This document shows, piece after piece, positions 2,666-59,445 of a DNA stretch of 64,000 nucleotides. This stretch comes from a virus (lineage: Duplodnaviria > Heunggongvirae > Uroviricota > Caudoviricetes): positions 10,951 through 74,950 of IMG/VR virus record IMGVR_UViG_3300037455_000402. The stretch is one strand, 5' to 3'. The notes below the pieces were generated by a model, which did not search any database, had not been told where the DNA came from, and worked only from the letters and a program-made list of their open reading frames with translations. The position numbers and the translations under genes were made by a program. Numbering within the stretch: the stretch's first letter is position 1; each line of letters starts with the position of its first letter.

Positions 2666-2704
2666 CTATATATATTATAACAAAAATTTCTTAAAAAGTA
2701 AATA
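2666..2704 (-). promoter_or_regulatory. sigma70-type consensus promoter (TTTACT-N18-TATAAT), repeat family
   Basis: minus-strand reading TTTACTTTTTAAGAAATTTTTGTTATAATATATAGAAAAGG; member of ~30-copy family. Confidence 0.7.
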
Positions 2705-2773
2705 AGCCGCAAGAATAAAAATTTTAATCTTGCGGCTTACTTTGAAAGAAAGGAAATATTATAGTGAAACTAT

Positions 2774-2850
2774 TGGAGCTCCCGACAGGAATCGAACCTG
2801 CAACCTTCCGCTTACAAGGCGGACGCACTACCTATTGTGCTACAAGAGCA
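2774..2850 (-). tRNA. tRNA-Thr(UGU)
   Basis: cloverleaf by hand; anticodon loop CTTGTAA; T-arm GGTTCGATTCC; G1-C72,C2-G71; CCA encoded. Confidence 0.8.
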
Positions 2851-2952
2851 TCACAAGACGGGGATTTTGATACGGAATTGAACCGTTTGATTTTTTCGGA
2901 ATAGAAATTATTTACCTTAAACTATCAAGTATAGATTGCTGAACCGTCTTAT
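2851..2952 (-). ncRNA. Y-RNA-like structured RNA, short variant (family member a)
   Basis: 5' AAUAAGACGG..CAGCAAUCUAUA box, 3' CCGUCUUGU complementary 7-bp terminal stem; internal T-arm-like ACGGTTCAATTCCGT; flanked by tRNA-Phe and tRNA-Thr. Confidence 0.45.
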
Positions 2953-3028
2953 TGGTGCCGAGGGGGAGAGTCGAACTCCCTACGCCAAGCTCTTCAGGCT
3001 TGCGCTCTACCAGTTGAGCTACCTCGGC
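2953..3028 (-). tRNA. tRNA-Phe(GAA)
   Basis: anticodon loop CTGAAGA; D-arm TAGCTCAACTGGTAGAGC; CCA encoded. Confidence 0.8.
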
Positions 3029-3169
3029 ATTGGTGTCAGTTTTACTTCGCTTTCTTATTTTTTATAGAGGCGTTATCCGCTAAGCCACATATCTGACGCT
3101 CATTGATAAATCGCTGATTGTCTGTCGGTGGTAGTTGAAACTGACAAAATCCGTGTTAACCCCTCTTAA

Positions 3170-3246
3170 TGGTCGGAGATGCGGGACTCGAACCCACAGC
3201 CTCTGCGTCCCAAGCGCAGCCGTCTACCAAATTGGCGTAATCCCCG
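3170..3246 (-). tRNA. tRNA-Pro(UGG)
   Basis: anticodon loop CTTGGGA; C1-G72 typical of bacterial Pro; CCA encoded. Confidence 0.8.
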
Positions 3247-3316
3247 AGGAGTGCGGCATTACCCAGCCGCATGGGTGAATGAAAACATTCCTTTTAATGA
3301 GAACCTTTCGGTTCTT

Positions 3317-3395
3317 TGGTGGAGAAGACGAGCCTCGAACTCGCGACCTCCTGCTTGCAAGGCAGGCGCTCTCCCAGCTGAGCTACAACCCCATT
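3317..3395 (-). tRNA. tRNA-Ala(UGC)-like with imperfect acceptor stem
   Basis: anticodon loop CTTGCAA; G3:U70 present; U5-U68 and U6-U67 mismatches in acceptor (GGGGTTG / CTTCTCC); CCA encoded. Confidence 0.55.
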
Positions 3396-4013
3396 TGACT
3401 TGAAAACTTCATAAAAAATATGATTGCCAGTTTTTATCCTGTACTCATACAACGCTACGCATTATTCAGCCACAGTGACGATAAGTCTGAGCCCCATCCC
3501 CGTCGAGATGAAACTTCTTACCGCAGTTTCCGAAGAAACCCAAGCACTAAGGGGACTCTGTTTACCCCCAACTTTCACCCGTCATTCAGAATATTTGATT
3601 ACTATAAATCTTCTTTAAAGTTTTCAAACCAAACTGAGCCTTGGGCTACTCGCACCACCGTCAGGTTCTTACACGTTTCCGTGTAAGTGTAGGCTCAACT
3701 CCATTATTTTGCGTTCCCTGTATTTGCTCACGTCTTGCGGACGTGGTCTGCAGGGTTATTCCTCACTGAGGCGTCTATTGTTGGAGCAACCAGTTTAGGT
3801 GTGCCATTGCTCACGTTGCACCTGTGCCACGACTTCTCTCTTGATGGCTGGTATACCATCTTGTTCCGCCGCCTTTCGACTTCGGAAAAGAAACCTTATC
3901 AAGGTATCCCTTGACCTGACCTCTCAGCAGTTTCACCGTGCCCTTGCAGAGCTGACTAAGCCCTCATTTTAACACAAGGTTACAACATACTTTTTATGAA
4001 GTTTTCAAGTTTC
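3396..4013 (-). ncRNA. candidate large structured ncRNA (~620 nt; ROOL/GOLLD-like placement)
   Basis: no ORF >90 aa on either strand; 5' ACUUGAAAACUUCAUA and 3' UAUGAAGUUUUCAAGU form a perfect 15-bp terminal stem; sits between tRNA-Ile and tRNA-Ala. Confidence 0.45.
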
Positions 4014-4090
4014 TGGTGCCGCCGAGAAGATTCGAACTTCCGACCTCTCGGTTATCAGCCGAGTGCTCTAACCAACTGAGCTACGACGGC
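4014..4090 (-). tRNA. tRNA-Ile(GAU)
   Basis: anticodon loop CTGATAA; T-arm GGAAGTTCGAATCTTCT; CCA encoded. Confidence 0.8.
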
Positions 4091-4177
4091 ATTTGGTGAA
4101 CCATAAAGTCGGCTCATACTACACATCTATCACCTTTTTTTATAGTAGGAGTCTCATTTGTTCTTAAAACCTACTTG

Positions 4178-4253
4178 ATGGAGCGAGATAAGGGAATCGA
4201 ACCCTCACCCTCTGCATGGCAAGCAGAGATTCTAACCGTTAAACTAATCCCGC
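4178..4253 (-). tRNA. tRNA-Gly(GCC)
   Basis: anticodon loop TTGCCAT; acceptor GCGGGAT/ATCTCGC; CCA encoded. Confidence 0.75.
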
Positions 4254-4321
4254 ATTAATTCCAACTATTAACCGAAGTTGGCACGAGATTGTGAGCAATC
4301 ACCTTGAAAATGCCCGAAGGC

Positions 4322-4410
4322 TGGCGGGAGCGACAGGGTTCGAACCTGCATAGGAAATAAATTTCCGACGGTTAACAGCCGCCTGCCTGAGACCGTTAGG
4401 CTACACTCCC
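4322..4410 (-). tRNA. type-II (long variable arm) tRNA with GUU anticodon, G73 discriminator (Ser-like body, Asn anticodon)
   Basis: acceptor GGGAGTG/CGCTCCC, anticodon stem GGCGG/CCGTC loop CTGTTAA, 13-nt variable hairpin GGAAATTTATTTCC, T-arm GCAGGTTCGAACCCTGT, GCCA end. Confidence 0.5.
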
Positions 4411-4419
4411 ATTTTAAAT

Positions 4420-4495
4420 TGGCGACTCCAACGGGACTCGAACCCGTAACTCCAGCGTGACAGGCTGGTGACTTAACCAGTTAATCGACAGAGCC
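4420..4495 (-). tRNA. tRNA-Asp(GUC)
   Basis: anticodon loop CTGTCAC; T-arm ACGGGTTCGAGTCCCGT; CCA encoded. Confidence 0.75.
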
Positions 4496-4504
4496 ATTAA
4501 TAAT

Positions 4505-4589
4505 TGGTCGGTAGAGAGGGACTCGAACCCCCAACGCCATAGGCAACTGTTTTACAGACAGCTCGCTTAACCAGTTTGCATACCTACCG
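4505..4589 (-). tRNA. tRNA-Tyr(GUA)
   Basis: type II; anticodon loop CTGTAAA; variable arm TGCCTATGGCGTT; C1-G72; CCA encoded. Confidence 0.75.
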
Positions 4590-4686
4590 ATTTGGTTGAC
4601 GTTTAAGTCCGCCGCGCTGCTCATACCCGTTTTTGTTTCTACCGTGAGAACTACATTTGCTCCAAAACTCACTATAAACTTGTCAT

Positions 4687-4763
4687 TGGCGATACCGACG
4701 GGACTCGAACCCGCAACCTCTGGAGTGACAGTCCAGTGCTCTACTCTATTGAACTACGGCACC
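4687..4763 (-). tRNA. tRNA-Asp(GUC), second copy
   Basis: anticodon stem CTGGA/TCCAG loop CTGTCAC; CCA encoded. Confidence 0.75.
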
Positions 4764-5339
4764 ATTAAATAAGCAGGTCATCAAGAGCAGTTGGCTTCGA
4801 ACCAACATCACAGCTTTAACGCTGCATCTTGTCCAGTTAGAAGATACTCTCTATCTGCACAACTTATTTTAACGTGTAGTTGCCAAACACGGTTCTATCT
4901 AACGTAGGTTGTCTCCTCGTTTGTACAAATAAATTCAACTCCAGTAAGTATTCCATTGATTACGTCATTCAGACGTAGAGGGCGTCGAACCCACGACTTA
5001 TCTTTCGTTAAGGCTTTACCTTTCGACTTCTCGTTAGAATTACCCGAACAGCACCACGGGGAGGTGAGAGTCATCGCTGTTCATTGATTGGAAATCATAT
5101 CAGTACGGACGTCCAATCTGGAATACCGATATTCTTTCTACGCCATCAATCAGTGGCGGCTTGTTTTAAGAGCTAATTCAAGTTGTGCTTTCCAACCTTT
5201 TTCACTCAGGTAGTATCTTCACTTGCGAACCTCAGGTTTTCCGAACTTGAAACCTTAGTAAAGCGGGAGGATTTACCTCTTGAAACCCTTCAAAGTCAGA
5301 CATTTTATTTAAAGCTAAGCAAAAATGCCAAAACTTCTC
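4764..5339 (-). ncRNA. ~575-nt non-coding spacer with tRNA-fragment-like hairpins (candidate structured RNA or tRNA pseudogene debris)
   Basis: no credible ORF; contains T-arm-like GGTTCGAAGCCAAC and GGGTTCGACGCCC without complete cloverleaves. Confidence 0.3.
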
Positions 5340-5415
5340 TGGCTGACAAGGTGGGACTCGAACCCACAACCCCGCGGTTAACAGCCGCGTGCTCTGCCAG
5401 TTGAGCTACTCGCCA
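5340..5415 (-). tRNA. tRNA-Asn(GUU)
   Basis: anticodon stem CGCGG/CCGCG loop CTGTTAA; U1-A72 acceptor TGGCGAG/CTTGTCA; CCA encoded. Confidence 0.75.
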
Positions 5416-5455
5416 ATCTGTATTGTAATTATTATGTAGGTTTTCTCAACCTTTT

Positions 5456-5493
5456 CTATAATAATTATATCATAAATTTTCTAAAAAGTCAAT
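5456..5493 (-). promoter_or_regulatory. consensus promoter TTGACT-N17-TATAAT
   Basis: minus strand TTGACTTTTTAGAAAATTTATGATATAAT; drives tRNA-Asn cluster. Confidence 0.7.
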
Positions 5494-5531
5494 TTCTCAA
5501 CTTCTTAAAAATTTTATAATCGAAAGGAATC

Positions 5532-5557
5532 TGGCGGAGTTCAAATCGGTGCCGCCA
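5532..5557. terminator. GC-rich hairpin H1 (GGCGG-N14-CCGCC), terminator-like
   Basis: TGGCGGAGTTCAAATCGGTGCCGCCA; related hairpins at 5584-5608 and 5790-5812 all with TTCAA in loop. Confidence 0.45.
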
Positions 5558-5583
5558 GCCACCAGTTATTTTAGAACGGAGGT

Positions 5584-5608
5584 GGGCGGATTTCAAACAG
5601 CGCCGCCC
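5584..5608. terminator. GC-rich hairpin H2
   Basis: GGGCGGATTTCAAACAGCGCCGCCC followed by T-run on plus strand. Confidence 0.45.
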
Positions 5609-5641
5609 CGCCAGTTGTTTTTGTTTCTTTCTTAACCTTTT

Positions 5642-5679
5642 CTATAAATATTATATCATAGTTTTTAGAAGAAGTCAAG
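5642..5679 (-). promoter_or_regulatory. consensus promoter TTGACT-N17-TATAAT
   Basis: TTGACTTCTTCTAAAAACTATGATATAAT; transcript runs into hairpins H2/H1 with no ORF (possible ~120-nt sRNA). Confidence 0.65.
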
Positions 5680-5708
5680 ATTTTTTAAACTCAAATTTTT
5701 GAAATTAT

Positions 5709-5782
5709 TGGTTGCGGACCGTAGACTCGAACTACGAACTCAAGCTTATGAGGCTTGTATTATGCCATTTCACTAATCCGCA
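5709..5782 (-). tRNA. tRNA-Met/Ile2(CAU)
   Basis: anticodon stem CAAGC/GCTTG loop CTCATAA; U1-A72; CCA encoded. Confidence 0.7.
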
Positions 5783-5789
5783 ATATACT

Positions 5790-5812
5790 GGGGCGGCAGT
5801 TTCAACCGCCCC
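5790..5812 (-). terminator. GC hairpin H3 downstream of CDS 5827-6246
   Basis: GGGGCGGCAGTTTCAACCGCCCC. Confidence 0.45.
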
Positions 5813-5826
5813 GTTTGAGTTCAGAA

Positions 5827-6246
5827 TCAGTCCTCAGCCTCAGCCTTTTCCTTACGCTTAGCCTCGTCCTTAGCAATCTTCTCTGCCTTTGCCTTAGCCT
5901 TCTCTGCGTCCTTAGTTGCCTTTTCAGCTACATAAGTCTCATACTCAGCCTTAGCTGCTGCAAAATCGAAAGCTGTATAAGTCTTCTTATCAGTCTTTCT
6001 GTTTGCGAACTCCTTGACAGTAGGATTGATTGTTACGACGATAGGATTTGTTTCGCCCTCAACCTCGGCAGTATCAACGATAACTGCGATTTCGTTTGTC
6101 TTTGAAGTATTGCCTGTTCTTACCATTGCTACGGCATCTTCGCCATACTCGCCTGCAAGAAAAGCTGTTATCTTCTCGATAACCTCAGTCTTCTTGTCAG
6201 CCTTTACCTTTGTGATTGTGTTTTCCTTAGTAATAACTGTTGCCAT
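5827..6246 (-). CDS. hypothetical protein with Lys/Ala/Glu-rich C-terminal tail (139 aa)
   Basis: ORF track; start at MATVITK with AGAGG RBS; C-terminus KATKDAEKAKAKAEKIAKDEAKRKEKAEAED. Confidence 0.55.
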   Translation of the reverse strand: MATVITKENTITKVKADKKTEVIEKITAFLAGEYGEDAVAMVRTGNTSKTNEIAVIVDTAEVEGETNPIVVTINPTVKEFANRKTDKKTYTAFDFAAAKAEYETYVAEKATKDAEKAKAKAEKIAKDEAKRKEKAEAED

Positions 6247-6319
6247 TTTGTACCTCTTTCTCTCACTTAAGGTCGTGAGCACCATTTAGATTATTTTTGA
6301 AAGGCTTTCTCAACCTTTT

Positions 6320-6357
6320 CTATATATATTATAACAAAGATTTTTGAAAAAGTCAAG
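6320..6357 (-). promoter_or_regulatory. consensus promoter TTGACT-N17-TATAAT
   Basis: TTGACTTTTTCAAAAATCTTTGTTATAAT. Confidence 0.7.
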
Positions 6358-6382
6358 ATTTTATTTTCTTGAAATTTTCAAT

Positions 6383-6458
6383 TGGTGCCGCGGGGCGGAA
6401 TTGAACCGCCGACACGAGGATTTTCAGTCCTCTGCTCTACCTACTGAGCTACCGCGGC
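6383..6458 (-). tRNA. tRNA-Phe(GAA), second copy
   Basis: anticodon stem GAGGA/TCCTC loop CTGAAAA; acceptor GCCGCGG/CCGCGGC; CCA encoded. Confidence 0.75.
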
Positions 6459-6462
6459 ATTT

Positions 6463-6540
6463 TGGTCGGGCATCAGGGACTCGAACCCTGAACTTGCTGA
6501 TTAAGAGTCAGCTACTCTGAACCAATTGAGTTAATGCCCG
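6463..6540 (-). tRNA. tRNA-Lys(CUU)
   Basis: anticodon stem GCTGA/TCAGC loop CTCTTAA; C1-G72; CCA encoded. Confidence 0.7.
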
Positions 6541-6735
6541 ATTATTACTGTTTGACTGACTTGTGTCTTATTCCTAACAGCTTAGGAAGGATATTGTTGA
6601 CCAGTAAATATCCAGAACTGCTGGGGGCTTCTCGCACCGCAGGCACGCCAGTTTTTCATCAGTCAAATGAGGCACTGGAATCTTCCTCAGTCGTTTTCTC
6701 CAAACGGTATGGAGCAGGATAATCGACCAAATCCT

Positions 6736-6812
6736 TGGTCACGGCAACGAGGTTCGAACTCGTATTTCCACCTTGAAAGGGTGGTGTCCTCGACCATTTA
6801 GACGATGCCGCG
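6736..6812 (-). tRNA. tRNA-Glu(UUC)
   Basis: Glu-type D-arm TCGTCTAAATGGTCGAGGAC; anticodon loop CTTTCAA; CCA encoded. Confidence 0.75.
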
Positions 6813-6925
6813 TTCTTAGAAGAGGTTGACCTTGGTATTGCAACCAGCCAGTCGATTTGACAACTCACCCCAGAATCGAACTGAGGCTTCACAAGTGTTT
6901 TGAAATAATCTTTTCTCAACCTTTT

Positions 6926-6963
6926 CTATAATAATTATATCATATTTTTTAGTAAAAGTCAAG
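6926..6963 (-). promoter_or_regulatory. consensus promoter TTGACT-N17-TATAAT
   Basis: TTGACTTTTACTAAAAAATATGATATAAT. Confidence 0.7.
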
Positions 6964-6982
6964 ATTTTTTAAATCTTAATTT

Positions 6983-7330
6983 TTACCATTCTGTGATGTC
7001 GGGGATTCTTTCTACATCTACGTCCCAGTTGTAAAGGTCGTCCTCAGTTGCTTCAGTAACAGTAAAGCCACAGTCAGCAACGAAGTTCTCATACTCACCA
7101 GAATCGTAGAAGCAAGCCTCGCCGCACTCTTCACCACGCTCTTCGTACTCGTCTTCGTCCATATCCTCTGGAGACCACTGAACGAGGTGCTCCCAAGTCT
7201 GAATATAGTCAGGGAGACCTTCGTCTGCCCAAACCTCAGCCTGTTCCTTGCACTTTGCGATTACGAAGTCAGTTTCATCGGTTCCAGCATAGCCGCAACC
7301 GTAAGTTACCTTAAAGATTTTTCCTTCCAT
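6983..7330 (-). CDS. hypothetical acidic protein (115 aa)
   Basis: ORF track; AGAGGAATTAAAAATG RBS. Confidence 0.55.
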   Translation of the reverse strand: MEGKIFKVTYGCGYAGTDETDFVIAKCKEQAEVWADEGLPDYIQTWEHLVQWSPEDMDEDEYEERGEECGEACFYDSGEYENFVADCGFTVTEATEDDLYNWDVDVERIPDITEW

Positions 7331-7355
7331 TTTTAATTCCTCTCTTTCATCTTTT

Positions 7356-7393
7356 CTATAATAATTATATCATAACTTTTTAGAAAAGTCAAG
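7356..7393 (-). promoter_or_regulatory. consensus promoter TTGACT-N17-TATAAT
   Basis: TTGACTTTTCTAAAAAGTTATGATATAAT. Confidence 0.7.
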
Positions 7394-7422
7394 ATTTCTT
7401 TCTTTTTAATTTTTTATTTGAT

Positions 7423-7497
7423 TGGTACCCCCAGAAGGAATCGAACCTTCGTCCCACGCTTAGAAGGCGCGTGCACTATCCGCTGTGCTATGGGGGC
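7423..7497 (-). tRNA. tRNA-Arg(UCU)
   Basis: anticodon stem CGCGC/GCGTG loop CTTCTAA; CCA encoded. Confidence 0.75.
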
Positions 7498-7686
7498 ATT
7501 TATGTGGCAGGTTTAATGTACCTGCCAAGCATTGATGACGAGATTCTTCCAGCCATCAGCTTCATATTTTGGTATGTCTACCTCTGCCGCTTCATGAGAG
7601 CTATAAACCCCGAATTATCTTTGGAGCATTTACATTAATGAAAAGCTCACATTTTGTAATTCCCGTAAGAATGTAAACAGTTTCCA

Positions 7687-7956
7687 TTACTTTTCCTCCC
7701 TCTCAAAATAATCCGCAGGATAACACCAGAAATAGTCGTCGATGTAGAAGTGGTCAAAAGCAAGAAGACCATACTTCTGTTCTCTCTGCTCCTTGATGTT
7801 TGCTTCAAGTTCTGCAAGCAGTTCCTTAGCATCTTCTTCGTTATGATTTTCCTTGATATACTCAACGACATAATCATAAGCAAGATTAATGTCTGAGAAT
7901 ATCTTATAGTTACAGTCGTGGTCTTCAAGAATGAAGAGTTCTCTTACAGGTTTCAT
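7687..7956 (-). CDS. hypothetical protein (89 aa)
   Basis: ORF track; AAGGAAGTAAAACATATG RBS. Confidence 0.55.
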   Translation of the reverse strand: MKPVRELFILEDHDCNYKIFSDINLAYDYVVEYIKENHNEEDAKELLAELEANIKEQREQKYGLLAFDHFYIDDYFWCYPADYFEREEK

Positions 7957-7983
7957 ATGTTTTACTTCCTTTCTCTTAACTTT

Positions 7984-8021
7984 CTATATATATTATATCA
8001 AAAGTTTTCTAAAAAGTAAAG
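7984..8021 (-). promoter_or_regulatory. consensus promoter TTTACT-N17-TATAAT
   Basis: CTTTACTTTTTAGAAAACTTTTGATATAAT. Confidence 0.65.
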
Positions 8022-8044
8022 ATTTTAAAAGCTTTAAATTTTAA

Positions 8045-8118
8045 TTGGCAGGGGCTAAAGGAATCGAACCCTTATCTTGCGGGTTGGAGCCGCTTATAAT
8101 ACCATTATACGAAACCCC
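8045..8118 (-). tRNA. tRNA-Trp(CCA)
   Basis: A1-U72, discriminator G, anticodon loop CTCCAAC; CCA encoded. Confidence 0.75.
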
Positions 8119-8480
8119 TATTACTGAGGACTTATAATGCCTACTCATGTCCACCCGCCACAGCAGATGTCCTTCTTTCAGCGTTAAATCGCCCTCAACT
8201 TAAAGCTTTAAGTGAATGTTCCGCCGCCACCCGTCGACTGATGGCGTTGTCCTCTCTCTGGAAGTTTTCAGGTTACCACCCCACTACTCTTCGTTGTAAT
8301 GATACGGAAGGTCCAACCTCGCCATGGACCTACAGCTACTACCCTTTGTCTTCTACTAAGGTATAGTTAGTATTCAAGTTTTAGTACCAGAACTAACAAA
8401 GGTACACTTAAGCCCGAACTAAGTTTAACGTCTTGTCGGTAAGACCACAGGAAAGGGGATAGGGATATTCTGTGCTGTTT
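8119..8480 (-). ncRNA. ~360-nt non-coding spacer of unknown function
   Basis: no ORF; between tRNA-Trp and Ala-like pseudo-tRNA. Confidence 0.2.
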
Positions 8481-8552
8481 CTGAAGCTGAGGAGACTCGA
8501 ACTCCTAACCTACGGCTTCCCGCCGCTGCTCTCCCTATTGAGCTACAACCCC
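8481..8552 (-). pseudogene. tRNA-Ala-like pseudo-tRNA or tRNA-like element (no canonical anticodon loop, no CCA)
   Basis: 5' half GGGGTTGTAGCTCAATAGGGAGAGC nearly identical to tRNA-Ala at 3317-3395; G3:U70 kept; anticodon arm GCGGC-GGGAA-GCCGT has a 5-nt loop. Confidence 0.4.
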
Positions 8553-8580
8553 TAACAGGATGGAATCTTTCCCGAACCCT

Positions 8581-8657
8581 TGGTACCAGCGGTGGGACTC
8601 GAACCCGCAACCCCCTGCGTATGAAGCAGGTGCTCTCACCAATTGAGCTACGCTGGC
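8581..8657 (-). tRNA. tRNA-Met/Ile2(CAU), second
   Basis: anticodon stem CCTGC/GCAGG loop TTCATAC; CCA encoded. Confidence 0.65.
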
Positions 8658-8817
8658 ATATTCACAAGATACACTTAAAAAAACCACTCCGCTGTGTTTG
8701 TCTACTTCACTACTCGCCCATAATGGTGGGCGAGGATAGGATTTGCACCTACGAAGCCTTTCGGCGGCGGATTTACTTTGGGTTAAATTAACAATAGATT
8801 GCTGTATGTATCTTAAT
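8658..8817 (-). ncRNA. Y-RNA-like RNA with permuted tRNA-like domain (family member b)
   Basis: 5' AUUAAGAUACAU-ACAGCAAUCUAUU box; 3' GUGUAUCUU pairs with 5' end; internal order T-arm (GTAGGTGCAAATCCTAT) - acceptor 3' strand CTCGCCC-A-CCA - loop - acceptor 5' strand GGGCGAG - D-arm-like; U8 run. Confidence 0.5.
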
Positions 8818-8896
8818 TGGTGGACGATACGGGAATCGAACCCGTCTGATTTCCTGTTTGCAGGACAGGTGACCACCCCTTGCAGTCCCATCGCCC
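8818..8896 (-). tRNA. tRNA-Ala(UGC) variant with C33
   Basis: G3:U70; anticodon stem CCTGT/ACAGG loop CCTGCAA (C at position 33); CCA encoded. Confidence 0.55.
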
Positions 8897-9105
8897 ATTA
8901 ATTGAGGTAGTCGTACGCACTACTTTCATATTCCAGAAGCCGCTCAATCGGCTCGGTTAAGTCTGGCTTACGTGGACTTCCATTCACGCTACATAATTTC
9001 TCGAATCCAGTAGGGGAACGCCGCCGTTATGGTAGACGATTAATATACCTCGGCTCCTTACAGCCGCCGTGACCGACAGGTTTGTACGAACACCCTGCAA
9101 ACGAT

Positions 9106-9180
9106 TGGTACTCACGAGTGGGATTGAACCACCGACCTTTTCCACGTCAAGGAACTGCTCTCCCGCTGAGCTACGCGAGT
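9106..9180 (-). tRNA. tRNA-Val(GAC)
   Basis: A1-U72; anticodon loop TTGACGT; T-arm GGTGGTTCAATCCCACT; CCA encoded. Confidence 0.7.
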
Positions 9181-9327
9181 ATATAAAGAGTAAGTAGGTG
9201 CGGTGACATAAAGTTCTTCCGCAACACCCAAAAGCCAATGCTGACAGTCATACGACTTTCTTTCCAAAACCTCAATCTCATTGTCAGCGCTAACACCAAG
9301 ATATTTTGATTTTGCTACTTACTATAT

Positions 9328-9401
9328 TGGTTGCCGTTGAGAGATTCGAACTCCCGATTACTGGGTCAGAGCCAGCTGTGTTACCACTTCACTAAACGGC
9401 A
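9328..9401 (-). tRNA. tRNA-Gln(CUG)
   Basis: U1-A72; anticodon stem GCTGG/CCAGT loop CTCTGAC; CCA encoded. Confidence 0.75.
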
Positions 9402-9797
9402 ATAAATTAACAAAATTGACCAAGAAAAACTTCAACTGTTCATTTACTCTATGCCAGACACTCGGTAGTTGGTCTACATAGCCAACAGAACTCGCTAAAG
9501 CGTTCTTTCCACTTCCACTCCTCAAATCCGAGAAGAAGTTTCTCTTAGTTTCTTTCGGAGGTCTTGAGGGATGCTCTCAATTCCTCTTGGGAGGTTATAA
9601 CCAACAAGCTGACTGTTTCTCTTTACGTTGAGAGGTTATCTTACGCCGCCTAACGCTGCGGAGCGAAGCGAACAATGGCAAGGGACCTTCAGCATAGGGA
9701 GCAGTCCCCGCGGAGTGAACTTCGACGATTTTGTCGCTTGTAGATAAGCTGCATGAAAGTATACGCCGCCCTATTTCGCATCTGCCACCATTCAAAT
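9402..9797 (-). ncRNA. ~390-nt non-coding spacer (unknown structured RNA?)
   Basis: no ORF; GC-rich hairpins (GGGACTGCTCCC); between two tRNA-Gln genes. Confidence 0.2.
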
Positions 9798-9871
9798 TGG
9801 TTTCCGCTGAGAGACTCGAACTCCCATTCTTGGCTTCAGAGACCAGTGTCCTACCATTAGACGAAACGGAA
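9798..9871 (-). tRNA. tRNA-Gln(CUG), second copy
   Basis: U1-A72, D-arm TCGTCTAATGGTAGGAC, anticodon loop CTCTGAA; CCA encoded. Confidence 0.7.
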
Positions 9872-9877
9872 TTAAAT

Positions 9878-9966
9878 TGGTCGGCAGGGTAGGACTCGAA
9901 CCTACAAGACTCCTAAGAGCAACGGGGTTACAGCCCGCGACGCTACCAATTACGCTCTACCTGCCG
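9878..9966 (-). tRNA. tRNA-Tyr(GUA), second copy
   Basis: type II; anticodon stem GCGGG/CCCGT loop CTGTAAC; long variable arm; C1-G72; CCA encoded. Confidence 0.75.
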
Positions 9967-10190
9967 ATTAATAAGTGAGTAGCGGATAGTTACCTCACTT
10001 TCCAAGTTATGTACTTGGTCTAACACTCGCTTTACAGCTGATGGCGAATGTCTTGAGCAGCCGTGGCTCTCCGTAACAACTTAAAACTATTCGCAGACTC
10101 GAACTGCACCTTACTCCCTGAAGGAATTGAACCTTCTTACCTTGATAAATCAAGGTCACGACGTCACGTCTCTAATAGTTTAAGATTTAA

Positions 10191-10266
10191 TGGTGACGGC
10201 AACGGGATTCGAACCCGTATTTCTACCTTGAGAGGGTAACGACCTAAGCCATTAGTCGATGCCGCC
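10191..10266 (-). tRNA. tRNA-Glu(CUC)
   Basis: Glu-type D-arm TCGACTAATGGCTTAGGTC; anticodon loop CTCTCAA; CCA encoded. Confidence 0.7.
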
Positions 10267-10385
10267 ATTAATATCAAATATTCCTTTCGGCTACTCGACG
10301 CAAAGAGTGCCGAGGTGGACCGTTAACCCACATCCATCTCCGAAGGTGCTGACGGCGGAATATTTAATACTTTTCTCAACCTTTT

Positions 10386-10423
10386 CTATATATATTATAC
10401 TATAATTTTTAAGAAAAGTCAAG
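10386..10423 (-). promoter_or_regulatory. consensus promoter TTGACT-N17-TATAAT
   Basis: TTGACTTTTCTTAAAAATTATAGTATAAT. Confidence 0.7.
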
Positions 10424-10443
10424 ATTTTTTAATTTGAAATTTT

Positions 10444-10519
10444 TGGTCGGAGTGACAGGACTCGAACCTGCGGCATCATGGTCCCAAACCACGCATTCTA
10501 CCAACTGAATTACACCCCG
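10444..10519 (-). tRNA. tRNA-Pro(UGG), second copy
   Basis: C1-G72; anticodon stem CGTGG/CCATG loop TTTGGGA; CCA encoded. Confidence 0.7.
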
Positions 10520-10786
10520 ATTTATGGAAGCTTTCCCCGTAGGGAGGTTTACCAACCCCTTAGCTAAGTATTGCTTAACTGTCTTCACGCATACAGTCAT
10601 AGCTCTGTAAACTATCGCGGCTATGTTGCTCACATTTAATCGTTTTCTCATTGAAACGGAGTTGTCATACATAACAAAAACACTATCTGAAAGTCACCTG
10701 TTTTACCGACAGGTCGAGCAAGTTATCCAGTGCTTGCCACTGTGGAAGCTTTGCACGTATACCAGCAGGCTTACCAGCCGAAATGT

Positions 10787-11179
10787 TTATGCGAAGTAAA
10801 GTCCTTCAGACCAAGAAGGAAAATCAGGTTCAATTACCTGAGCCGCAGACTCTCCTGCCATTTTTCCGTCTTCCCACCAGTGCATCCACCAGTCCTTGCT
10901 GTCTTCACCCTCGCCCTCAAGAGCGAACTTGAACTCAGGGAATTTTGCAGCGAACGCAGTCATATCCTCATCGTGTTCATACCATTTCCAGTCAGAAGAG
11001 TATTCAACAAGACTGTTGAGAAGCTCTATATTACTATCAAGCTCATCTTCCTTGAAATAAGAGCCATTGAAGATACGAGCAAACTCAGTTGCAAGTTTCG
11101 GAAATGCAGAATGTTCTGCAGTTATAGGGTTATTCTCTTTATCGACGATTGTCATTTTGAAATTGGTTATGTATCCCAT
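10787..11179 (-). CDS. hypothetical Trp-rich acidic protein (130 aa)
   Basis: ORF track; AAGGAAGTTAAAAATATG RBS. Confidence 0.55.
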   Translation of the reverse strand: MGYITNFKMTIVDKENNPITAEHSAFPKLATEFARIFNGSYFKEDELDSNIELLNSLVEYSSDWKWYEHDEDMTAFAAKFPEFKFALEGEGEDSKDWWMHWWEDGKMAGESAAQVIEPDFPSWSEGLYFA

Positions 11180-11343: not shown

Positions 11344-11345
11344 AT

Positions 11346-52626: not shown

Positions 52627-52835
52627 TTAATAAATCCGCCTACATTTATAATAAAGTAAGCTATATACATAAGCACCATTGGAACATTCATAGGCCCCAA
52701 TAAATTGACACCAATCCATGCGACGTTGCCGCCTATCCAAGCAACCCAGCCGCTACGCTTTTTAAGCATTATTAAAATATTGCCACCTAAGCTAAGGATT
52801 GCTCCAACTATTGAGAGAATTAAAATCCAATTCAT
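52605..52835 (-). CDS. small polytopic membrane protein (76 aa)
   Basis: three hydrophobic segments; promoter 52847-52886 upstream. Confidence 0.5.
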   Translation of the reverse strand: MNWILILSIVGAILSLGGNILIMLKKRSGWVAWIGGNVAWIGVNLLGPMNVPMVLMYIAYFIINVGGFIKWKEKKK

Positions 52836-52846
52836 CTTATCACCTT

Positions 52847-52886
52847 CTATATATTTATTATATCATAAATAATGTAAAAAGTAAAG
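52847..52886 (-). promoter_or_regulatory. consensus promoter TTTACT-N17/19-TATAAT
   Basis: CTTTACTTTTTACATTATTTATGATATAAT. Confidence 0.6.
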
Positions 52887-52897
52887 AGGTTTACTCT

Positions 52898-53257
52898 TTA
52901 AATTCTAAAAGAGTAAACCTCATCTGACTTTGCTGCAATTAGTTGTGTATCTATTGGTGAAATAAATTCATCGACTACCGCCATATCCCAGCGGTCTCCA
53001 CGAGGCATATGGTCTGAGACAATTAAAACTTTAATTATATTACGTTTCTCTTTATCAATCAATTTAACTGTTGTAGAAGAAATAGTACAATCATAGCTTT
53101 TATTCATAGACAAAACTCTGTGGTCTTTTACCATAAAGGCAAGTATCCTATCCCTTGCCCATGTAAAATGTTTCTCATTAGCAACAGCAATACAAGCGGT
53201 AAAATTGTCTTCTGTTAAAAATCTATGAAGTAAAAAATTAATTTCTATATCGTTCAT
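52898..53257 (-). CDS. hypothetical protein (119 aa)
   Basis: ORF track; ATG overlaps TAA of upstream GIY-YIG gene. Confidence 0.5.
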   Translation of the reverse strand: MNDIEINFLLHRFLTEDNFTACIAVANEKHFTWARDRILAFMVKDHRVLSMNKSYDCTISSTTVKLIDKEKRNIIKVLIVSDHMPRGDRWDMAVVDEFISPIDTQLIAAKSDEVYSFRI

Positions 53258-54270
53258 TATGAATTACCTGCCGTACTATTGTATCCCCATGTATTTGCAT
53301 GGTAGAATGAAATGTACTCCTTTTCCTTTCCATTTAATTCGTCAGTATCACATTCAGCAAGAACTTCAAAAGTGAAATTCTCTGCACCCTCTTCCCACAT
53401 TGCATTATAAAGCTTATTAGAAGTACCTGGCTCTGCTTTTACACCACGCTTTAAGTGAGTACGCCAACGTTCCTTAAAAGCCTATTTTGTTTGTCCGATA
53501 TAAACTTTGCCGTTTTCGAGATTGGTGATTTTATAGATACCAGTATTGCCACGTCCAGTAACAACTCGTCCTACCATTTCATTGAATGGACGCTCATAAT
53601 AGTTCTTATAAATTAATTTGTAAAGAACAGAAGGGTCGTGAAGTTCGTCGGCAATTTTGCGAAGCTTCTTAACATCTTCAATATCATTTTCAGAAAGAAC
53701 AATACGATAGAAATTTTTATCTTCTTTAATCTTTTCTGCTCTTTTATATTCCTCAATGATTTCTTGCTATTTAGCTTCAGCAGCCTTGACTTCTTTTTCA
53801 AGTTGAGCCTTTTTAGCTTTCATTTCAACAGAGAAATTCTAAAATTCTTCTGATATGTTAATCTTCTACTGGTCATAATAATCCATTACAGATTGAAGTT
53901 GTAGAGCCCCTTCTTTTGATTTGTTCTGTACCTCAGTAGCAAGTTCTGCCGCCAAAGCTTGGAGCTAATCGTCTCTTCGCTTACGAGCTGCCGCAAGGTC
54001 CATATCTAAATTCTTTATAGATTCTTCAATGGAACGACGCTTTCTCGCTGCTTCTTCTATAGCATTACCGAGTTCAAGTTTAATAGCTAATTCTTCTTCA
54101 CTAATTCTTTTCTTACGCTTAGCTTCGAGAGCCTTAAGAGCTTCCTATTTGGCTGTTTCAAAATCTTTAACTGCCTTTTCAGAAACAGATATCTGCTGGT
54201 GAACGGCTAAACAATAGCCGCCCCAGCCCGCAAAAAGACAACAGATTATAGCAATAAAAATATATCCCAC
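53257..54270 (-). CDS. GIY-YIG nuclease-domain protein (N-terminal TM helix + coiled coil), six in-frame TAG codons
   Basis: single frame from GTG (GAGGTGG RBS) to TAA; C-terminal GIYKITNLENGKVYIGQTK-TAG-AFKERWRTHL...KLYNAMWEEG...NFTFEVL GIY-YIG signature lies downstream of the TAGs. Confidence 0.6.
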
Positions 54271-54281
54271 TATAATCCACC

Positions 54282-54860
54282 TCAGTTTATAAGAAGTTCC
54301 TTTGCCATTGGAAGTGTTTCAATCCAAGCGCAGAACTCTCTCCATTCAGGAAGCCTATGGTTTTTACGCTGTTTATAGATATTTCTAAGACAACGATAGT
54401 TAGTTGTCATTCGAGCAGTAATTCTAAAGCCGCATGGATTGCTGTAGAGAACTCTTAAATAGTTCTCAGGCGTAGGATTTTCAAGATACTCTGCTACAAG
54501 TTCTTTCATTATTACAATCATACGAGGGTCTACATATTCGATATATGCGTCATCAAGTTCAAACTTGGTAATACGATGCATTGTAGACTATGATGATACA
54601 AATTCGAGAAAACGATAACGTTCTGCTTCAACCCAAGCCTTATTGGTAAAAGTTAAGTCAAAGTTGACACGAATACCAGTTAAGAACTATCCGTGTGCCT
54701 AATTATCATTATCAACCGCCTTGATTAAATTCTCTATACGCTTTAAATCTTTGTCGCTTAATATCCTATTATAATCCTACAGTTCAGTTCTCATAGGATA
54801 ACCAGATGCAATTATAGAATTGGTAAGGTCATATACTTCTGCATTATTTACTATACTCAT
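54282..54860 (-). CDS. hypothetical protein with four in-frame TAG codons
   Basis: ATG 54860 overlaps TGA of upstream gene; frame MSIVNNAEVYDLTNSIIASGYPMRTEL-TAG-DYNRILSDKDLKRIENLIKAVDNDN-TAG-AHG-TAG-FLTGIRVNF...FVSS-TAG-STMHRITKFELDD... runs uninterrupted to TGA at 54282. Confidence 0.5.
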
Positions 54861-56600: not shown

Positions 56601-56631
56601 AGTCCTCCTTTTATTTATTTTCTATAATTAT

Positions 56632-56669
56632 TATATCATAATTGTAATCAAATGTCAAGTTTTTAATAA
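56632..56669 (-). promoter_or_regulatory. consensus promoter TTGACA-N17-TATAAT
   Basis: TTGACATTTGATTACAATTATGATATAAT. Confidence 0.7.
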
Positions 56670-56803
56670 TAAAAAAGAGTAGTCAATGACTACTCCTTTC
56701 GTTTGCGTGTTCCCATTTCGATATTTTCTGTTTTTGCCTTTTTACTTTTCTCGCTTACGCAATTGAGTTGCCAAGTCAATCACATATCTTTTCTAATGGG
56801 GTA

Positions 56804-57667
56804 TTAGATAGTACGGAAATAGTTTCTTTGACCATCACCGGACCATTGATTGCAAGTCCAGCCTGCAAATGCTTGTGGGTTATTAAAGTAATAATCCACC
56901 GCGTCAGACATTGCCGAATAATGAACTGAGCCGCCGCAGTAGTATTCTGCATATTTATTGAATCCCCAAGGTGCGCAAGTCTGGTCCAGTACGCCCTCGA
57001 CTGTGCCAGGCCAACGTGAGTCATTCACCATATTCATTACAGATGCTACTATCTTAGCTCTCTCATATGTATCTGCCATGCCGCCATACTCACTTGCGAC
57101 AATCTTGCAAAGCAATGTATAATCGTACTCGCTAACTGAAGGAGTAACATTGCTTATTGGTTCTACATATTCATTAATAACTTTTAAATCGGGTTTACAT
57201 TCGCTACAAATTCTACACTCAATATTCTCTGTATTCTCAATCTCAATAACTTCGCCCTGCTTTGCCCAGTGACAAGTAGAGCGGTGTATATAGTGTGTGT
57301 TTGGTTTAAACACAACAAATTCTCTTTCAGGTTCTGCCGTCTCTGGAGCCGCAACAGTAGTCTCGGCATCTGCTACTGTAGTCGAAACCTCTTCTGTTAC
57401 CACTGTTGTAGTAGTAGAAGAAAGTGTAGTTGATGTGCTTGTGGTTGTAGAAGTTGTGGATGTGCTTGTGGATGTTGAAGTAGTACCTGTTGTTACTGTG
57501 GTAGAAGTTTCTAATGTAGTAACTACTGCCGCCTTAACAGGAAAATCTACTCCGTGTGCTGTCCCACCGTCCGTATGTACAGTATGCGGTGTGGCAAAAC
57601 AAATTACGACAGCAGATGCGAATACTGCTGCCGCAATCTTAATTGATGTTTTAAGCTTCTTATTCAT
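56804..57667 (-). CDS. secreted cell-wall hydrolase, SleB/hydrolase_2-like C-terminal domain, Ser/Thr-rich linker
   Basis: signal peptide MNKKLKTSIKIAAAVFASAVVICFA; linker TTSTSTSTSTTSTTT; C-terminal ...LLCKIVASEYGGMADTYERAKIVASVMNMVNDSRWPGTVEGVLDQ...APWGF. Confidence 0.55.
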   Translation of the reverse strand: MNKKLKTSIKIAAAVFASAVVICFATPHTVHTDGGTAHGVDFPVKAAVVTTLETSTTVTTGTTSTSTSTSTTSTTTSTSTTLSSTTTTVVTEEVSTTVADAETTVAAPETAEPEREFVVFKPNTHYIHRSTCHWAKQGEVIEIENTENIECRICSECKPDLKVINEYVEPISNVTPSVSEYDYTLLCKIVASEYGGMADTYERAKIVASVMNMVNDSRWPGTVEGVLDQTCAPWGFNKYAEYYCGGSVHYSAMSDAVDYYFNNPQAFAGWTCNQWSGDGQRNYFRTI

Positions 57668-57764
57668 TAAAATTCCTCCTTTTCGTCCTTATGGACTATG
57701 AGGGGAACACGCATTTGTGTAGCGAAAACGCTACAATTATATGTAGAAATTACTAAGGAAAAGT

Positions 57765-58274
57765 CTAAAATTTATCATCTTCATTAAGATAGATATAATG
57801 AATAATAATTAAATCGTTCTTAATGATAGCCATAAATCCAGACACTCCCAAATAATTCTCATCAAATAAATGAACAATACAAGTTGTATTGTAAGATAAA
57901 GAATAATGATAACGTATAAGACCTTCAATTTGAAATTTCCAGTCTAAAGTCAATTTGCCTTTGGTTTTGTCAAAATATTCGCTTAATAGAAGCACAGCGT
58001 CTTCAAAAAGAATACCATAATTACTTAATTCAAAAATCTTGCCGCGACTTAATATGGGAACATCAGAGCTTGTAATTGCATTTTTGCCCCTTAAATTCTC
58101 TCTATGCCGAGGACTTATTGAACTAATGTAATCAAAACATCTATCAAGGACTTTCTCCATATCTGATTTAGATAAAGAGAAATAGTCATTTATCATTTTA
58201 TTAAATACTTTGACAAGTTTTTCAGGCATTGCTACTTTCTTATTATCATCTTCATAAATAGTAACGAGGCCCAT
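57765..58274 (-). CDS. hypothetical protein (169 aa)
   Basis: ORF track; AGGGGTGATAAGATG RBS. Confidence 0.5.
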   Translation of the reverse strand: MGLVTIYEDDNKKVAMPEKLVKVFNKMINDYFSLSKSDMEKVLDRCFDYISSISPRHRENLRGKNAITSSDVPILSRGKIFELSNYGILFEDAVLLLSEYFDKTKGKLTLDWKFQIEGLIRYHYSLSYNTTCIVHLFDENYLGVSGFMAIIKNDLIIIHYIYLNEDDKF

Positions 58275-58285
58275 CTTATCACCCC

Positions 58286-59383
58286 TTAGAAGGTAATTAC
58301 TTTCTTACTTGACTTACTGAAAACATTACCAGCCTTGGTATTATTGCTATTTGATTTGCCGCGATGAGTCTTAATAGTTGGACACCAGTATAAAGAATCC
58401 TTTGAACGGGTGGCGGCAACATAACAAATTCGTCTCTCTTCCTGACTAAATGTCTTTGCGCCAACGACAACTACATAAGGAAATTCAAGTCCCTTAGCAG
58501 AATGAATTGTCATTATTTTAACCTTATTTTCTTCGAGCAAATGCCCCATCTGTTCAAGGTCAAGGTCTCCACGTTTAACAATTACATTCGGAACTCCGAT
58601 TTTATTTAAATACCTTTCAGCTTCTTCAATTTCAGAATTGGCTCTACAAAGTACGGCCCAACCTGTCCAATCTTTTGTCCAAGTCATCTCTTCTGCCGCA
58701 TCAGCAAAAGAACAATTCTTATCTAAGAATCCCTGCTTTGTAAGTGTTGGTATTGCACAAGGTGAAATCTTAGGCATTGAATTTAAATAGTCATCGGCAT
58801 AACGAATAATGTTTGGTGGGTTACGATAGTTTTCTACAAGAAAATACTTTTTAAATGTAGGGTCTTCTGCAACTTCTCTGATAAATTTATCAGAAGCGCC
58901 GCGGAAGGAGTAGATAAACTGTCTTTCATCACCAACATAGAAACGATTTTCCGCTGGTATGCGAAGTATAAAATTGTATTGTAAAGGGTCTGTATCTTGG
59001 AACTCATCTACAAATAAGTAAGCAACCTTTGGATAAATTGAAGGCGGAACTGTTACAGCCTTTGATATAATTTTATCAAACTGCTCTTCCGCAATATCTC
59101 CATAAGTAGGAATGTTTGCAAGATTACAAATTTTATTTGCATAAGAGTGAATTGTTCCGATGAACATTCCTTCACATTTTTCACCAAGTCTCTTTCTCAT
59201 TTCCTCCGCCGCCTGATTGGTGAAAGTAAAAGCGACAATAGAAGAGGGCTCAACGCCCTCATCTAATAGTCTATTAACTCTTGCAATTAAGGTAGCAGTT
59301 TTACCACCAGCCGCACACGCAAGACAGAGGATATTTTTTTCTTTTGAATTTATAATGTTCTACTGTCGAATGTTGTATTCCAT
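58286..59383 (-). CDS. UvrD/Rep-family helicase-like protein (compact, ~365 aa) with in-frame TAG at codon 8
   Basis: GGAGGACTGCGTATG RBS; MEYNIRQ-TAG-NIINSKEKNILCLACAAGGKTATL (Walker A) ... VDEFQDTDPLQ (motif II) ... TIHSAKGLEF (V) ... VAATRSK (VI). Confidence 0.6.
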
Positions 59384-59407
59384 ACGCAGTCCTCCTTTTC
59401 TTTCGAA

Positions 59408-59445
59408 CTACATATATTATATCATAAAATTTTGAAAAAGTCAAT
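59408..59445 (-). promoter_or_regulatory. consensus promoter TTGACT-N17-TATAAT
   Basis: TTGACTTTTTCAAAATTTTATGATATAAT. Confidence 0.7.

Follow-up and report, generated by a model that had tools for sequence, protein, structure and literature searches.

A repeated, putative promoter-leader cassette of the primary-sigma type in a large phage of the gut or rumen

The DNA analysed here, hereafter the window, is a stretch of 64,000 nucleotides (nt) that covers positions 10,951 to 74,950 of the IMG/VR record IMGVR_UViG_3300037455_000402 (Caudoviricetes); all coordinates count from its first letter. The minus strand carries every predicted gene in it, and units and genes named below lie on that strand unless the plus strand is mentioned. 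Between these genes one short unit recurs 33 times. As far as its letters tell, the unit has all the sequence determinants of a strong housekeeping-sigma promoter, always in the same orientation and at a fixed short distance from the ATG. We consider it likely, with a probability of about 0.8, that the unit is a cassette of promoter and leader that would be read by the host polymerase with its primary sigma factor (sigma-A / sigma-70 type), and that would define the early, host-dependent genes of an approximately 180-kb phage of gut or rumen Firmicutes, probably Clostridia. The phage itself is a large one, of roughly 180 kb, and its syntenic relatives are contigs of 163-185 kb.

Anatomy of the repeated unit

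A strict search for TTGACT-N16-18-TATAAT gave 22 matches, 21 on the minus strand and one on the plus strand, against 0.05 expected from shuffled sequences. Using a looser regular expression and then a profile built from the copies themselves, we count 33 minus-strand copies, from 2649-2704 to 59391-59454, with nhmmer E-values between 2e-6 and 4e-14, which bears out the sequence-only reading of this DNA, where about 30 copies between 2666 and 59445 had been described. All 33 are intergenic and lie on the gene strand; a single weak copy on the plus strand (20595-20643) is divergent to all the others. When aligned, the unit extends over some 60 nt and contains about 65 bits of information, and 20 copies match a strict 40-nt pattern for which the chance expectation is none. 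The longest exact run common to two copies is 40 nt (12673 and 18792), followed by runs of 34, 32 and 31 nt, so that the identity over 45 nt claimed earlier was somewhat too generous.

The order of elements is the same throughout: A/T-rich DNA and TTGACT(TTT) come first, then, past a spacer of 17 nt, TGnTATAAT followed by three A/T bases and TATAGAAA, and last a leader that is rich in purines and holds a ribosome-binding site. The aligned consensus reads (A/T-rich)-AAAATC-TTGACTTTT-nnn-AAAA-n-TTATGaTATAAT-ATA-TATAGAAAA-(leader). The -35 hexamer is TTGACT in 21 units, TTTACT in 10, and TTGACA and TTTACA in one each, exactly the variants that had been listed before. The -10 hexamer is TATAAT in 32 of the 33 units, and the spacer is likewise 17 nt long in 32, the TTTACA unit having 18 nt. 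What is more, 30 of the 33 carry TG at -15/-14, i.e. an extended -10, which Gram-positive promoters often have, and 24 have TATAG over the predicted start, while the 35 nt upstream of the -35 contain 73% A+T, compared with 60% window-wide. The earlier assignment to a host sigma factor is supported by this combination of -35, 17-nt spacer, extended -10, A/T-rich upstream DNA and co-orientation.

The conservation does not end at the promoter. In front of protein genes, the leaders are purine-rich, predicted to be unstructured and equipped with a ribosome-binding site, and in 22 units the ATG stands 22-37 nt past the -10. Pairs of leaders are 86-91% identical over their last 35 nt, while past the ATG the identity falls to chance level (18-23%) and the encoded proteins are unrelated. 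Since identity halts at the ATG in front of unrelated proteins, the repeated entity is the promoter together with a complete leader that ends at the start codon. About 10 units in front of RNA genes keep the TATAGAAAAGG start region and have no ribosome-binding site; in other words, the description as a promoter plus ribosome-binding site holds for the protein-gene copies, but not for these. The first tRNA behind an RNA-driving unit is 47-128 nt away or further, and several of the RNA-gene transcripts are predicted to open with a stable hairpin (17609, at -23 kcal/mol, as well as 19301, 11773 and 6328). The units 5650 and 48577 are without an annotated gene behind them. Consequently, a distance of 20-40 nt to the start codon or tRNA, as proposed in the sequence-only reading, fits the 22 units above but neither the tRNA clusters nor the two geneless units.

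A terminator is a less regular companion. In a scan based on RNAfold, a convincing hairpin with a T-run lies directly upstream, within about 30 nt of the unit or overlapping its -35, at only about 9 of the 33 units, and these hairpins differ from one another in sequence; a generic terminator scan of positions 1-20000 gave 21 sites against 16.3 expected, which is no enrichment. The picture of terminators that punctuate the units is hence accurate for about a third of them, but not for the others. Similarly, the 33 units serve about 94 protein genes and 45 RNA genes, i.e. some 4.2 features per unit at a median spacing of 1.3 kb, and rather than each short gene having a promoter of its own, there is about one unit for every four genes. 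ARAGORN predicts 43 tRNA genes, two of them with the CUA (amber-suppressor) anticodon, and one tmRNA (13302-13652, with the tag ANDFAFAA), nearly all of them within 2.7-19.3 kb, and Rfam finds a full-length ROOL RNA at 3408-4003 (RF03087, 264 bits).

In the mechanism that we propose, each cassette would supply A/T-rich upstream DNA, a near-consensus -35, a 17-nt spacer and the extended -10 TGnTATAAT, and then an all-A/T stretch and a purine start inside TATAG. Cassettes of protein genes would add an unstructured purine-rich leader of approximately 25 nt with its ribosome-binding site, ending at the ATG. Arranged in this way, the cassette would drive short operons of about four genes on average, and also tRNA clusters; among the RNA genes behind it are those of the two amber-suppressor tRNAs, of the tmRNA and of the ROOL RNA.

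Probable host, relatives and possible recombination at the units

Promoters of the Gram-positive primary-sigma type and of the Bacteroidota type are of recognisably different kinds. The hexamers of the unit, their 17-nt spacing, the TG extension and the AAGGAGG-type ribosome-binding sites, which stand before nearly all 94 protein genes, all fit the former class and not the latter. In addition, related contigs of 160-185 kb have been binned mostly with Clostridia genome bins. A query with a 71-nt unit brings up sequences like it, mostly intergenic, in 256 records of cultured phages, 195 of which belong to phages of Lactococcus, Staphylococcus, Bacillus, Enterococcus and Lactobacillus, with T5-like coliphages also present; one of the matches is annotated with -35 and -10 signals. 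The host is thus probably a member of the Firmicutes and, within these, probably of the Clostridia. The earlier preference for Firmicutes over Bacteroidota agrees with the type of ribosome-binding site, the extended -10 in 30 of 33 units, the Clostridia bins and the promoters of cultured Firmicutes phages.

Two occurrences of the design lie outside this group of phages. The unit at 46952-47010 is 85.7% identical over 62 nt to a sequence near the right end of the phi29-like Bacillus cereus phage DLc1 (L262, MW012634.1, 28482-28543, intergenic region 28487-28592). The two share TGnTATAAT-AAT-TATAGAAAGTTAA, a GAGAGG ribosome-binding site and the spacing to the ATG; DLc1 differs in having a single matching place in its 29-kb genome and TTGCAA as its -35. 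As no gene homology was detected between DLc1 and this phage, the likeness is probably a convergence on one optimum of the host polymerase. Furthermore, the 40-nt pattern is found at a bacterial chromosomal locus (L212), adjoining an exonuclease III-like gene and near LemA- and HtpX-like genes. From the presence of the pattern both there and in DLc1, it appears that the host polymerase alone uses the whole design, TATAGAAA included. The pattern with which the bacterial loci were searched required TATAGAAA, so that the result shows that such host promoters exist and says nothing of enrichment.

The bacterial locus has a feature of its own. At L212 3988-4115, the pattern is followed by a predicted short transcript, roughly 85 nt long, in which a 5' hairpin and a terminator can be recognised. 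Many 'Clostridium sp.' genome bins contain near-identical promoters and transcript starts, and over the first ~45 nt past the promoter the same is seen in L123, L127, L154, L163, L173, L179, L180, L222, L223 and L239. Rfam found nothing downstream of the promoter in the bacterial loci with the pattern, and the transcript may be an undescribed small RNA.

Among phage sequences, the unit is common to a clade of gut and rumen phages of about 160-190 kb. The strict pattern has at least 119 matching stretches in IMG/VR contigs, many of which are 90-190 kb long and come from the rumen and gut, and at least 120 in genome contigs. The latter belong mostly to Clostridia or Bacillota bins, and several are clearly phage contigs that were binned wrongly. 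A search of the matched stretches with the profile yields 409 copies, whose orientation within a locus is nearly always uniform, and 74 of the matched loci encode homologues of window genes. Some units occupy the same position in relatives, for example those before the RNA ligase gene, the kinase-HD gene and the gene at 2373-2639. The closest relative, IMGVR_UViG_3300045988_136890, is about 91% identical over window positions 17492-48565, and between 17.5 and 48.6 kb it keeps all 16 units in number and place; for the window proteins encoded at 31539-32420 and 11814-12380, it has no close copy or no match.

Each genome of the clade has its own variant of the unit. As the triplet that follows the -10, ATA prevails here (19 of 33 units), TAT in two 183-kb relatives (19 of 23 and 14 of 19 units) and ATT in another relative (9 of 11 units). 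Outside the core, identity among units within genomes is 0.58, against 0.524 +/- 0.004 when the genome labels are shuffled. Positional counterparts from different genomes have an identity of 0.67 and are no more alike than different units within one genome (0.66 and 0.71). Such genome-specific variants suggest concerted evolution. The likeness within genomes points either to homogenisation or to tuning of the unit to its particular host; for the former, duplication or gene conversion, on top of selection, is the process that we infer.

Could exchange of this kind be what the units are mainly for? Under this alternative, which we regard as possible yet doubtful, the units are principally recombination cassettes akin to the combined promoters and stem-loops of phage T4 known as PeSLs (promoter-early stem-loops), i.e. 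patches of homology through which the small genes that they flank are shuffled, inserted or deleted. On this view, frequent exchange would have made the units uniform as a side effect, and they could still act as promoters. In a PeSL, a strong sigma-70-like promoter is combined with A/T-rich DNA upstream of it and with a stem-loop; such cassettes are conserved over ~100 base pairs (bp), concentrate in variable regions before orphan genes and have been shown to recombine with one another (Arbiol et al. 2010, PMC2839356; Comeau et al. 2014, PMC4122927); circular DNA from exchange between neighbouring cassettes is another of their traits. The units resemble T4-type early promoters and PeSLs in several respects: there are dozens of sigma-70-type copies per genome, with A/T-rich DNA upstream and conservation over 60-100 bp, they stand before small genes of unassigned function in variable regions, some are fused to a terminator stem-loop, and the edge of the cassette falls between the -10 and the ATG. 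Unlike PeSLs, they have a stem-loop in only about 9 of 33 cases and no GGGG...CCCC stem, they are of the Gram-positive host type with a TG extension and a strong ribosome-binding site, many of them drive tRNA clusters, and neither unit-to-unit deletions nor an enrichment of breakpoints was found when looked for.

Individual junctions do fall at units (26714, 23286 and 42695-42708). The closest relative has another gene behind unit 26754, with the exchange beginning exactly at the ATG, and in the relative L221 a homologue of the gene at 26811-28082, with its downstream unit, continues directly into the RNA ligase 1 module, so that ~4 kb and three units are passed over. The same explanation draws on the end of leader identity at the ATG before unrelated genes, on the genome-own variants, with same-position units being no closer than different units within a genome, and on the adjacent or overlapping terminator hairpin at about 9 units. 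It also draws on the 5 of 16 insertions, deletions or replacements in the 91%-identical pair that lie within 60 nt of a unit; that said, this number is close to chance for events at gene boundaries, none of the 16 is bounded by two units, and all 16 units of the pair are kept. All seven insertions specific to the relative are without a unit, and those that were read appear to be solitary small genes, each with a ribosome-binding site of its own. What is more, two thirds of the units have no stem-loop component. Over all fetched relatives, gene adjacency fails to be conserved at 43 of the 54 unit-bearing junctions and at 168 of the 228 others (Fisher p = 0.49), a lack of difference for which we rejected the units as synteny breakpoints. 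The frequent ending of blastn matches at units was not counted as evidence, because the unit itself is a conserved island. In sum, recombination via the units may occur, but the tests do not support it as a main driver.

In-frame TAG codons and the extent of the presumed early set

The units have a boundary, and it coincides with a change in codon usage. In-frame TAG is almost absent from the genes between 195 and 57667, i.e. from the 57-kb block that carries the units, while the two window genes upstream of the first unit contain 20 and at least 13 in-frame TAGs. A Logan contig (L263 1-8220) with an identical copy of the query gene reaches 3.6 kb past the window, and the order of genes on it is the end of a GH25 endolysin gene, a gene of 108 amino acids, and genes of 554, 976 and 1014 amino acids with 9, 21 and 20 TAGs. 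Not one unit is present in these 8.2 kb upstream of the first unit (L263 1-8220), so the units begin where the TAG-rich block beside the lysis gene ends. Going by its codons, the late region (59448-64000 and L263 1-8220) is partially TAG-recoded. For the same reason, the statement that transcription would proceed without a phage polymerase can be made for the 57-kb block only, but not for the adjacent TAG-rich block, which is without units.

Both suppressor tRNAs lie within the unit-driven block. Namely, the unit at 14485-14547 (14509) heads tRNA-Lys, a suppressor tRNA(CUA) at 14270-14344, tRNA-Ser, a second suppressor tRNA(CUA) at 13749-13825, and the tmRNA. Compared with other tRNAs, the suppressors match Glu, Gln, Asp and Met tRNAs best, with low scores. 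Recoded gut phages have been described in which early genes use the standard code and late genes are recoded (Borges et al., bioRxiv 10.1101/2021.08.26.457843), and the present phage is like them in that in-frame TAG is concentrated in genes of the lysis and structural type, in that the presumed early genes form a block in the standard code, and in that the phage encodes suppressor tRNAs. Unlike in that account, in the text of which the word 'promoter' has 0 occurrences, the suppressor tRNAs here stand behind a unit of the early type.

A more elaborate proposal combines these observations. According to it, the unit is a self-homogenising cassette, all copies of which concerted evolution would hold in tune with one host polymerase or one phage factor, and it is this cassette that would define one early set and at the same time launch the code switch, the delay of late genes being translational and not a matter of when the suppressors are transcribed. 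Some unit-driven genes have TAGs in their first codons (the UvrD-like helicase gene at codon 8, the open reading frame after unit 23323 at codon 3) or several in frame (three after unit 37977), which counts in favour of such a launch, and early TAG codons of this kind could be translational gates that await the suppressor tRNA. We think it rather unlikely that the proposal is right as a whole.

Several observations weigh against the simpler reading of the unit as a host-polymerase cassette that defines the early genes. Recognition by the host polymerase, high promoter strength and early timing are all things that we infer from sequence. As many as 41 of the 71 intergenic gaps of at least 60 nt have no unit, and other, unrecognised promoters may therefore exist; a reading of the unit-free intergenic gaps for a second promoter class revealed no recurrent motif. 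The presumed late block, in which there are no units, comprises four to five genes in a mere ~8 kb, with hardly any DNA between them, and with so short a stretch the contrast between early and late is suggestive and not statistical. The position of both suppressor tRNAs behind the presumed earliest promoter class is a poor fit to a code switch based on delayed transcription of suppressors. Finally, with ~65 bits, the conservation exceeds the known sigma contacts, as it includes A/T tracts in the spacer, the bases that lead up to the start and those from +1 to +8, and sigma recognition alone is thus insufficient to explain the whole unit.

This last point invites an explanation in which the conservation beyond the sigma contacts is the site of a phage-encoded factor that acts on the shared 5' leader AGAAAAGG... 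and switches all units together, be it a repressor or shut-off protein, an activator that appropriates sigma, or an RNA-binding or RNA-cleaving protein. The ~65 bits spread over ~60 nt that take in the spacer, the triplet behind the -10 and TATAGAAA, which occupies +1 to +5 in 24 of 33 units, and the start-region block is kept before tRNA genes, where a ribosome-binding site is unneeded, both of which would suit such a factor, and the genome-specific variants could mean co-evolution with a genome-specific factor. However, all differences between genomes are swaps of A/T for A/T, as in near-neutral drift followed by homogenisation, the 40-nt pattern with TATAGAAA is found at the bacterial chromosomal locus and in the unrelated phi29-like Bacillus phage, and no candidate regulator is seen among the window proteins scanned, all of which makes the explanation improbable in our view. 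Much further down the scale, and in our opinion barely credible, is the idea that TGaTATAATataTATAG is the promoter of a phage single-subunit RNA polymerase, its likeness to sigma-70 promoters being partly coincidental or reflecting service to both polymerases. The TATAG(A/G)A start does recall the start regions of SP6 and T7 promoters, which counts for this idea, and the most conserved block has an appropriate length of about 17 nt, but a -35 at exactly 17 nt and a TG as strongly conserved as the -10 are not needed by such a polymerase. Moreover, bacterial chromosomes and phages that depend on the host polymerase have the design as well, and no polymerase domain is present in the 20 largest window proteins scanned.

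The units along the window and their significance

Read in the direction of transcription, the first unit (59391-59454) abuts the stop codon of the TAG-rich 1014-amino-acid gene and heads the UvrD-like helicase gene, which begins MEYNIRQ-TAG-..., with the TAG at codon 8 (59383). After it come a unit with the -35 TTGACA and a terminator 13 nt upstream (56607-56666), one with the -35 TTTACT and a 22-nt leader (52833-52895), and one with a terminator 12 nt upstream (50424-50482). An open reading frame in this part (53257-54318) has a GIY-YIG homing-endonuclease domain at its C-terminus and six in-frame TAGs within the otherwise TAG-poor block, and its homologues account for 24 tblastn matches across the fetched related loci. 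The truncated unit at 48575-48614, with TAAAAT as its -10, is followed only by two hairpins and a terminator, within a predicted transcript of ~55 nt (48515-48575). A terminator likewise stands before the unit at 48447-48508, which heads the genes from 48091-48438 onward, while that at 47205-47265 heads a gene of 57 amino acids (47023-47196). The unit that matches the promoter and leader of DLc1 (46952-47010) heads an RNA ligase gene (46045-46950) and has same-position copies in relatives, as does the unit at 42637-42697 (in L208, L201 and L149), which heads the kinase-HD gene at 41715-42626. At 42697-43848 lies a divergent adenylosuccinate-synthetase-like gene (Pfam E = 6e-13); with regard to a possible PurZ, its matches among PDB sequences are only chains named adenylosuccinate synthetase, the best at E = 2.9e-8.

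The unit at 41229-41290 has a divergent start region and a tRNA-Gly 416 nt downstream, and that at 37952-38014 has its -35 inside an inverted repeat followed by a T-run; the open reading frame after it (37729-37943, after 37977) contains three in-frame TAGs. Two units head longer stretches, namely 34515-34575, with eight genes including the nucleotidyltransferase-like gene at 33662-34504, and 30393-30446, with a terminator 5 nt upstream and an eight-gene stretch. At 26731-26785, a unit with a terminator 4 nt upstream has its downstream gene replaced from the ATG on in two relatives, and a strong terminator (-21.8 kcal/mol) precedes the unit at 25481-25540. The leader of the latter is 91% identical, up to the ATG, to that of the unit at 20519-20579, just as the leaders of 23298-23358 and 7340-7398 are 86% identical up to theirs. 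The unit at 23298-23358 (23323) has the -35 TTTACT, and the next ATG is followed by TAG at codon 3 (23289), while that at 7340-7398 heads the coding sequence 6983-7330.

The sole plus-strand copy (20595-20643, TTGACT-N17-TGGTATAAT) stands back-to-back with the unit at 20519-20579. It would give an RNA antisense to the 3' end of the gene at 20640-20804, whose 54-amino-acid product has a hydrophobic N-terminus and a charged tail. The layout of 20595-20804 resembles a type I toxin-antitoxin pair, and the relative L221 (JAZNZX010000038.1) has an opposite-strand copy arranged likewise.

In the tRNA-rich part, the unit at 19281-19339 has a hairpin leader and heads tRNA-His and tRNA-Gln, 18768-18828 heads the tRNA-His guanylyltransferase-like gene (17996-18760), which adjoins tRNA-His, and 17938-18001 heads the coding sequence 17657-17926. 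Behind the unit at 17587-17645 (17609), the transcript has a predicted terminal hairpin at its start and continues for ~690 nt before a tRNA cluster. This region (16911-17602) contains no credible open reading frame, tRNA or Rfam match, begins with the 5'-terminal hairpin and folds better than shuffled sequences (z = -3.85, 20 shuffles), and it may be a large structured RNA. Weak, sub-threshold matches to Y-RNA-like (YrlA) RNAs are found at 16542-16609 and 8495-8636. The unit at 12649-12709, with a strong terminator before it, has the 40-nt exact run in common with 18768-18828. The unit with TTTACA and the 18-nt spacer (11751-11808) has a predicted 5' hairpin in its transcript and heads tRNA-Cys, tRNA-Arg and tRNA-Thr; next are 11191-11249, heading the coding sequence 10787-11179 and tRNA-Pro, 10370-10429, heading nine tRNA genes from 10266 down to 8046, and 7967-8030, with the -35 TTTACT, heading the coding sequence 7687-7956 and tRNA-Arg. 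Further along, the unit at 6910-6969 heads tRNA-Glu, tRNA-Lys and tRNA-Phe, and that at 6305-6364, with an 82-nt leader that contains a hairpin, heads the coding sequence 5827-6246 and tRNA-Met. The unit at 5627-5686 (5650) is followed by ~150 nt without an annotated gene (5493-5643), which fold no better than shuffled sequences (z = -0.85), and then by the next unit, 5441-5500, which heads 12 RNA genes from tRNA-Asn (5340) down to tRNA-Thr (2774). The ROOL RNA belongs to this run and therefore sits inside the phage tRNA array. The last unit (2649-2704, -35 TTTACT, with a terminator hairpin that overlaps the -35) heads a seven-gene operon from 2373-2639 down to 195-521.

The proteins encoded in the window include two RNA ligases, one like T4 Rnl1 and one of PF09414, as well as the kinase-HD, tRNA-His guanylyltransferase-like, TROVE/Ro-like (DUF2828) and UvrD-like helicase proteins, in addition to the adenylosuccinate-synthetase-like protein and the GIY-YIG homing endonuclease. 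A set for RNA repair and tRNA maturation, with the nucleotidyltransferase among its members, is found at 17996-18760, 19164-19238, 21388-22512, 33662-34504, 38803-40281, 41715-42626 and 46045-46950.

Read as a host-polymerase cassette, the unit is an instance of phage early-gene control of a clear but familiar kind, a well-known strategy with precedents in T4 and its PeSLs, SPO1, T5 and phi29, and it reveals no new mechanism. The host-takeover module of the Bacillus phage SPO1 comprises about 12 kb and 26 genes in a terminal region (Stewart et al. 1998, as cited in PMC6873191). In its organisation it is like the block studied here: small early genes (presumably early in the present phage) are grouped in short operons, which are headed by promoters and ribosome-binding sites of the kind that strongly expressed Firmicutes genes have and are read, or in the present phage would be read, by the host sigma-A polymerase. 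Unlike that module, the present block extends over about 57 kb, with 33 units and 43 tRNAs. Mildly new are the cassette character, with identity ending at the ATG, the genome-specific homogenisation, and the fact that the cassette drives tRNA clusters together with the suppressor tRNAs of a partly recoded phage.

For an uncultured clade of large phages of gut and rumen Clostridia, the units provide a sequence-defined map of putative host-dependent transcription units, and they back the assignment to a Firmicutes host without recourse to CRISPR or prophage evidence. The cassette consensus could help as a probe to locate early regions in related metagenomic contigs, and the cassette itself could be put to use in gut Clostridia as a strong, portable promoter with its leader. 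Finally, the placement of the suppressor tRNAs behind a presumably early promoter class constrains models in which recoding times the expression of late genes.

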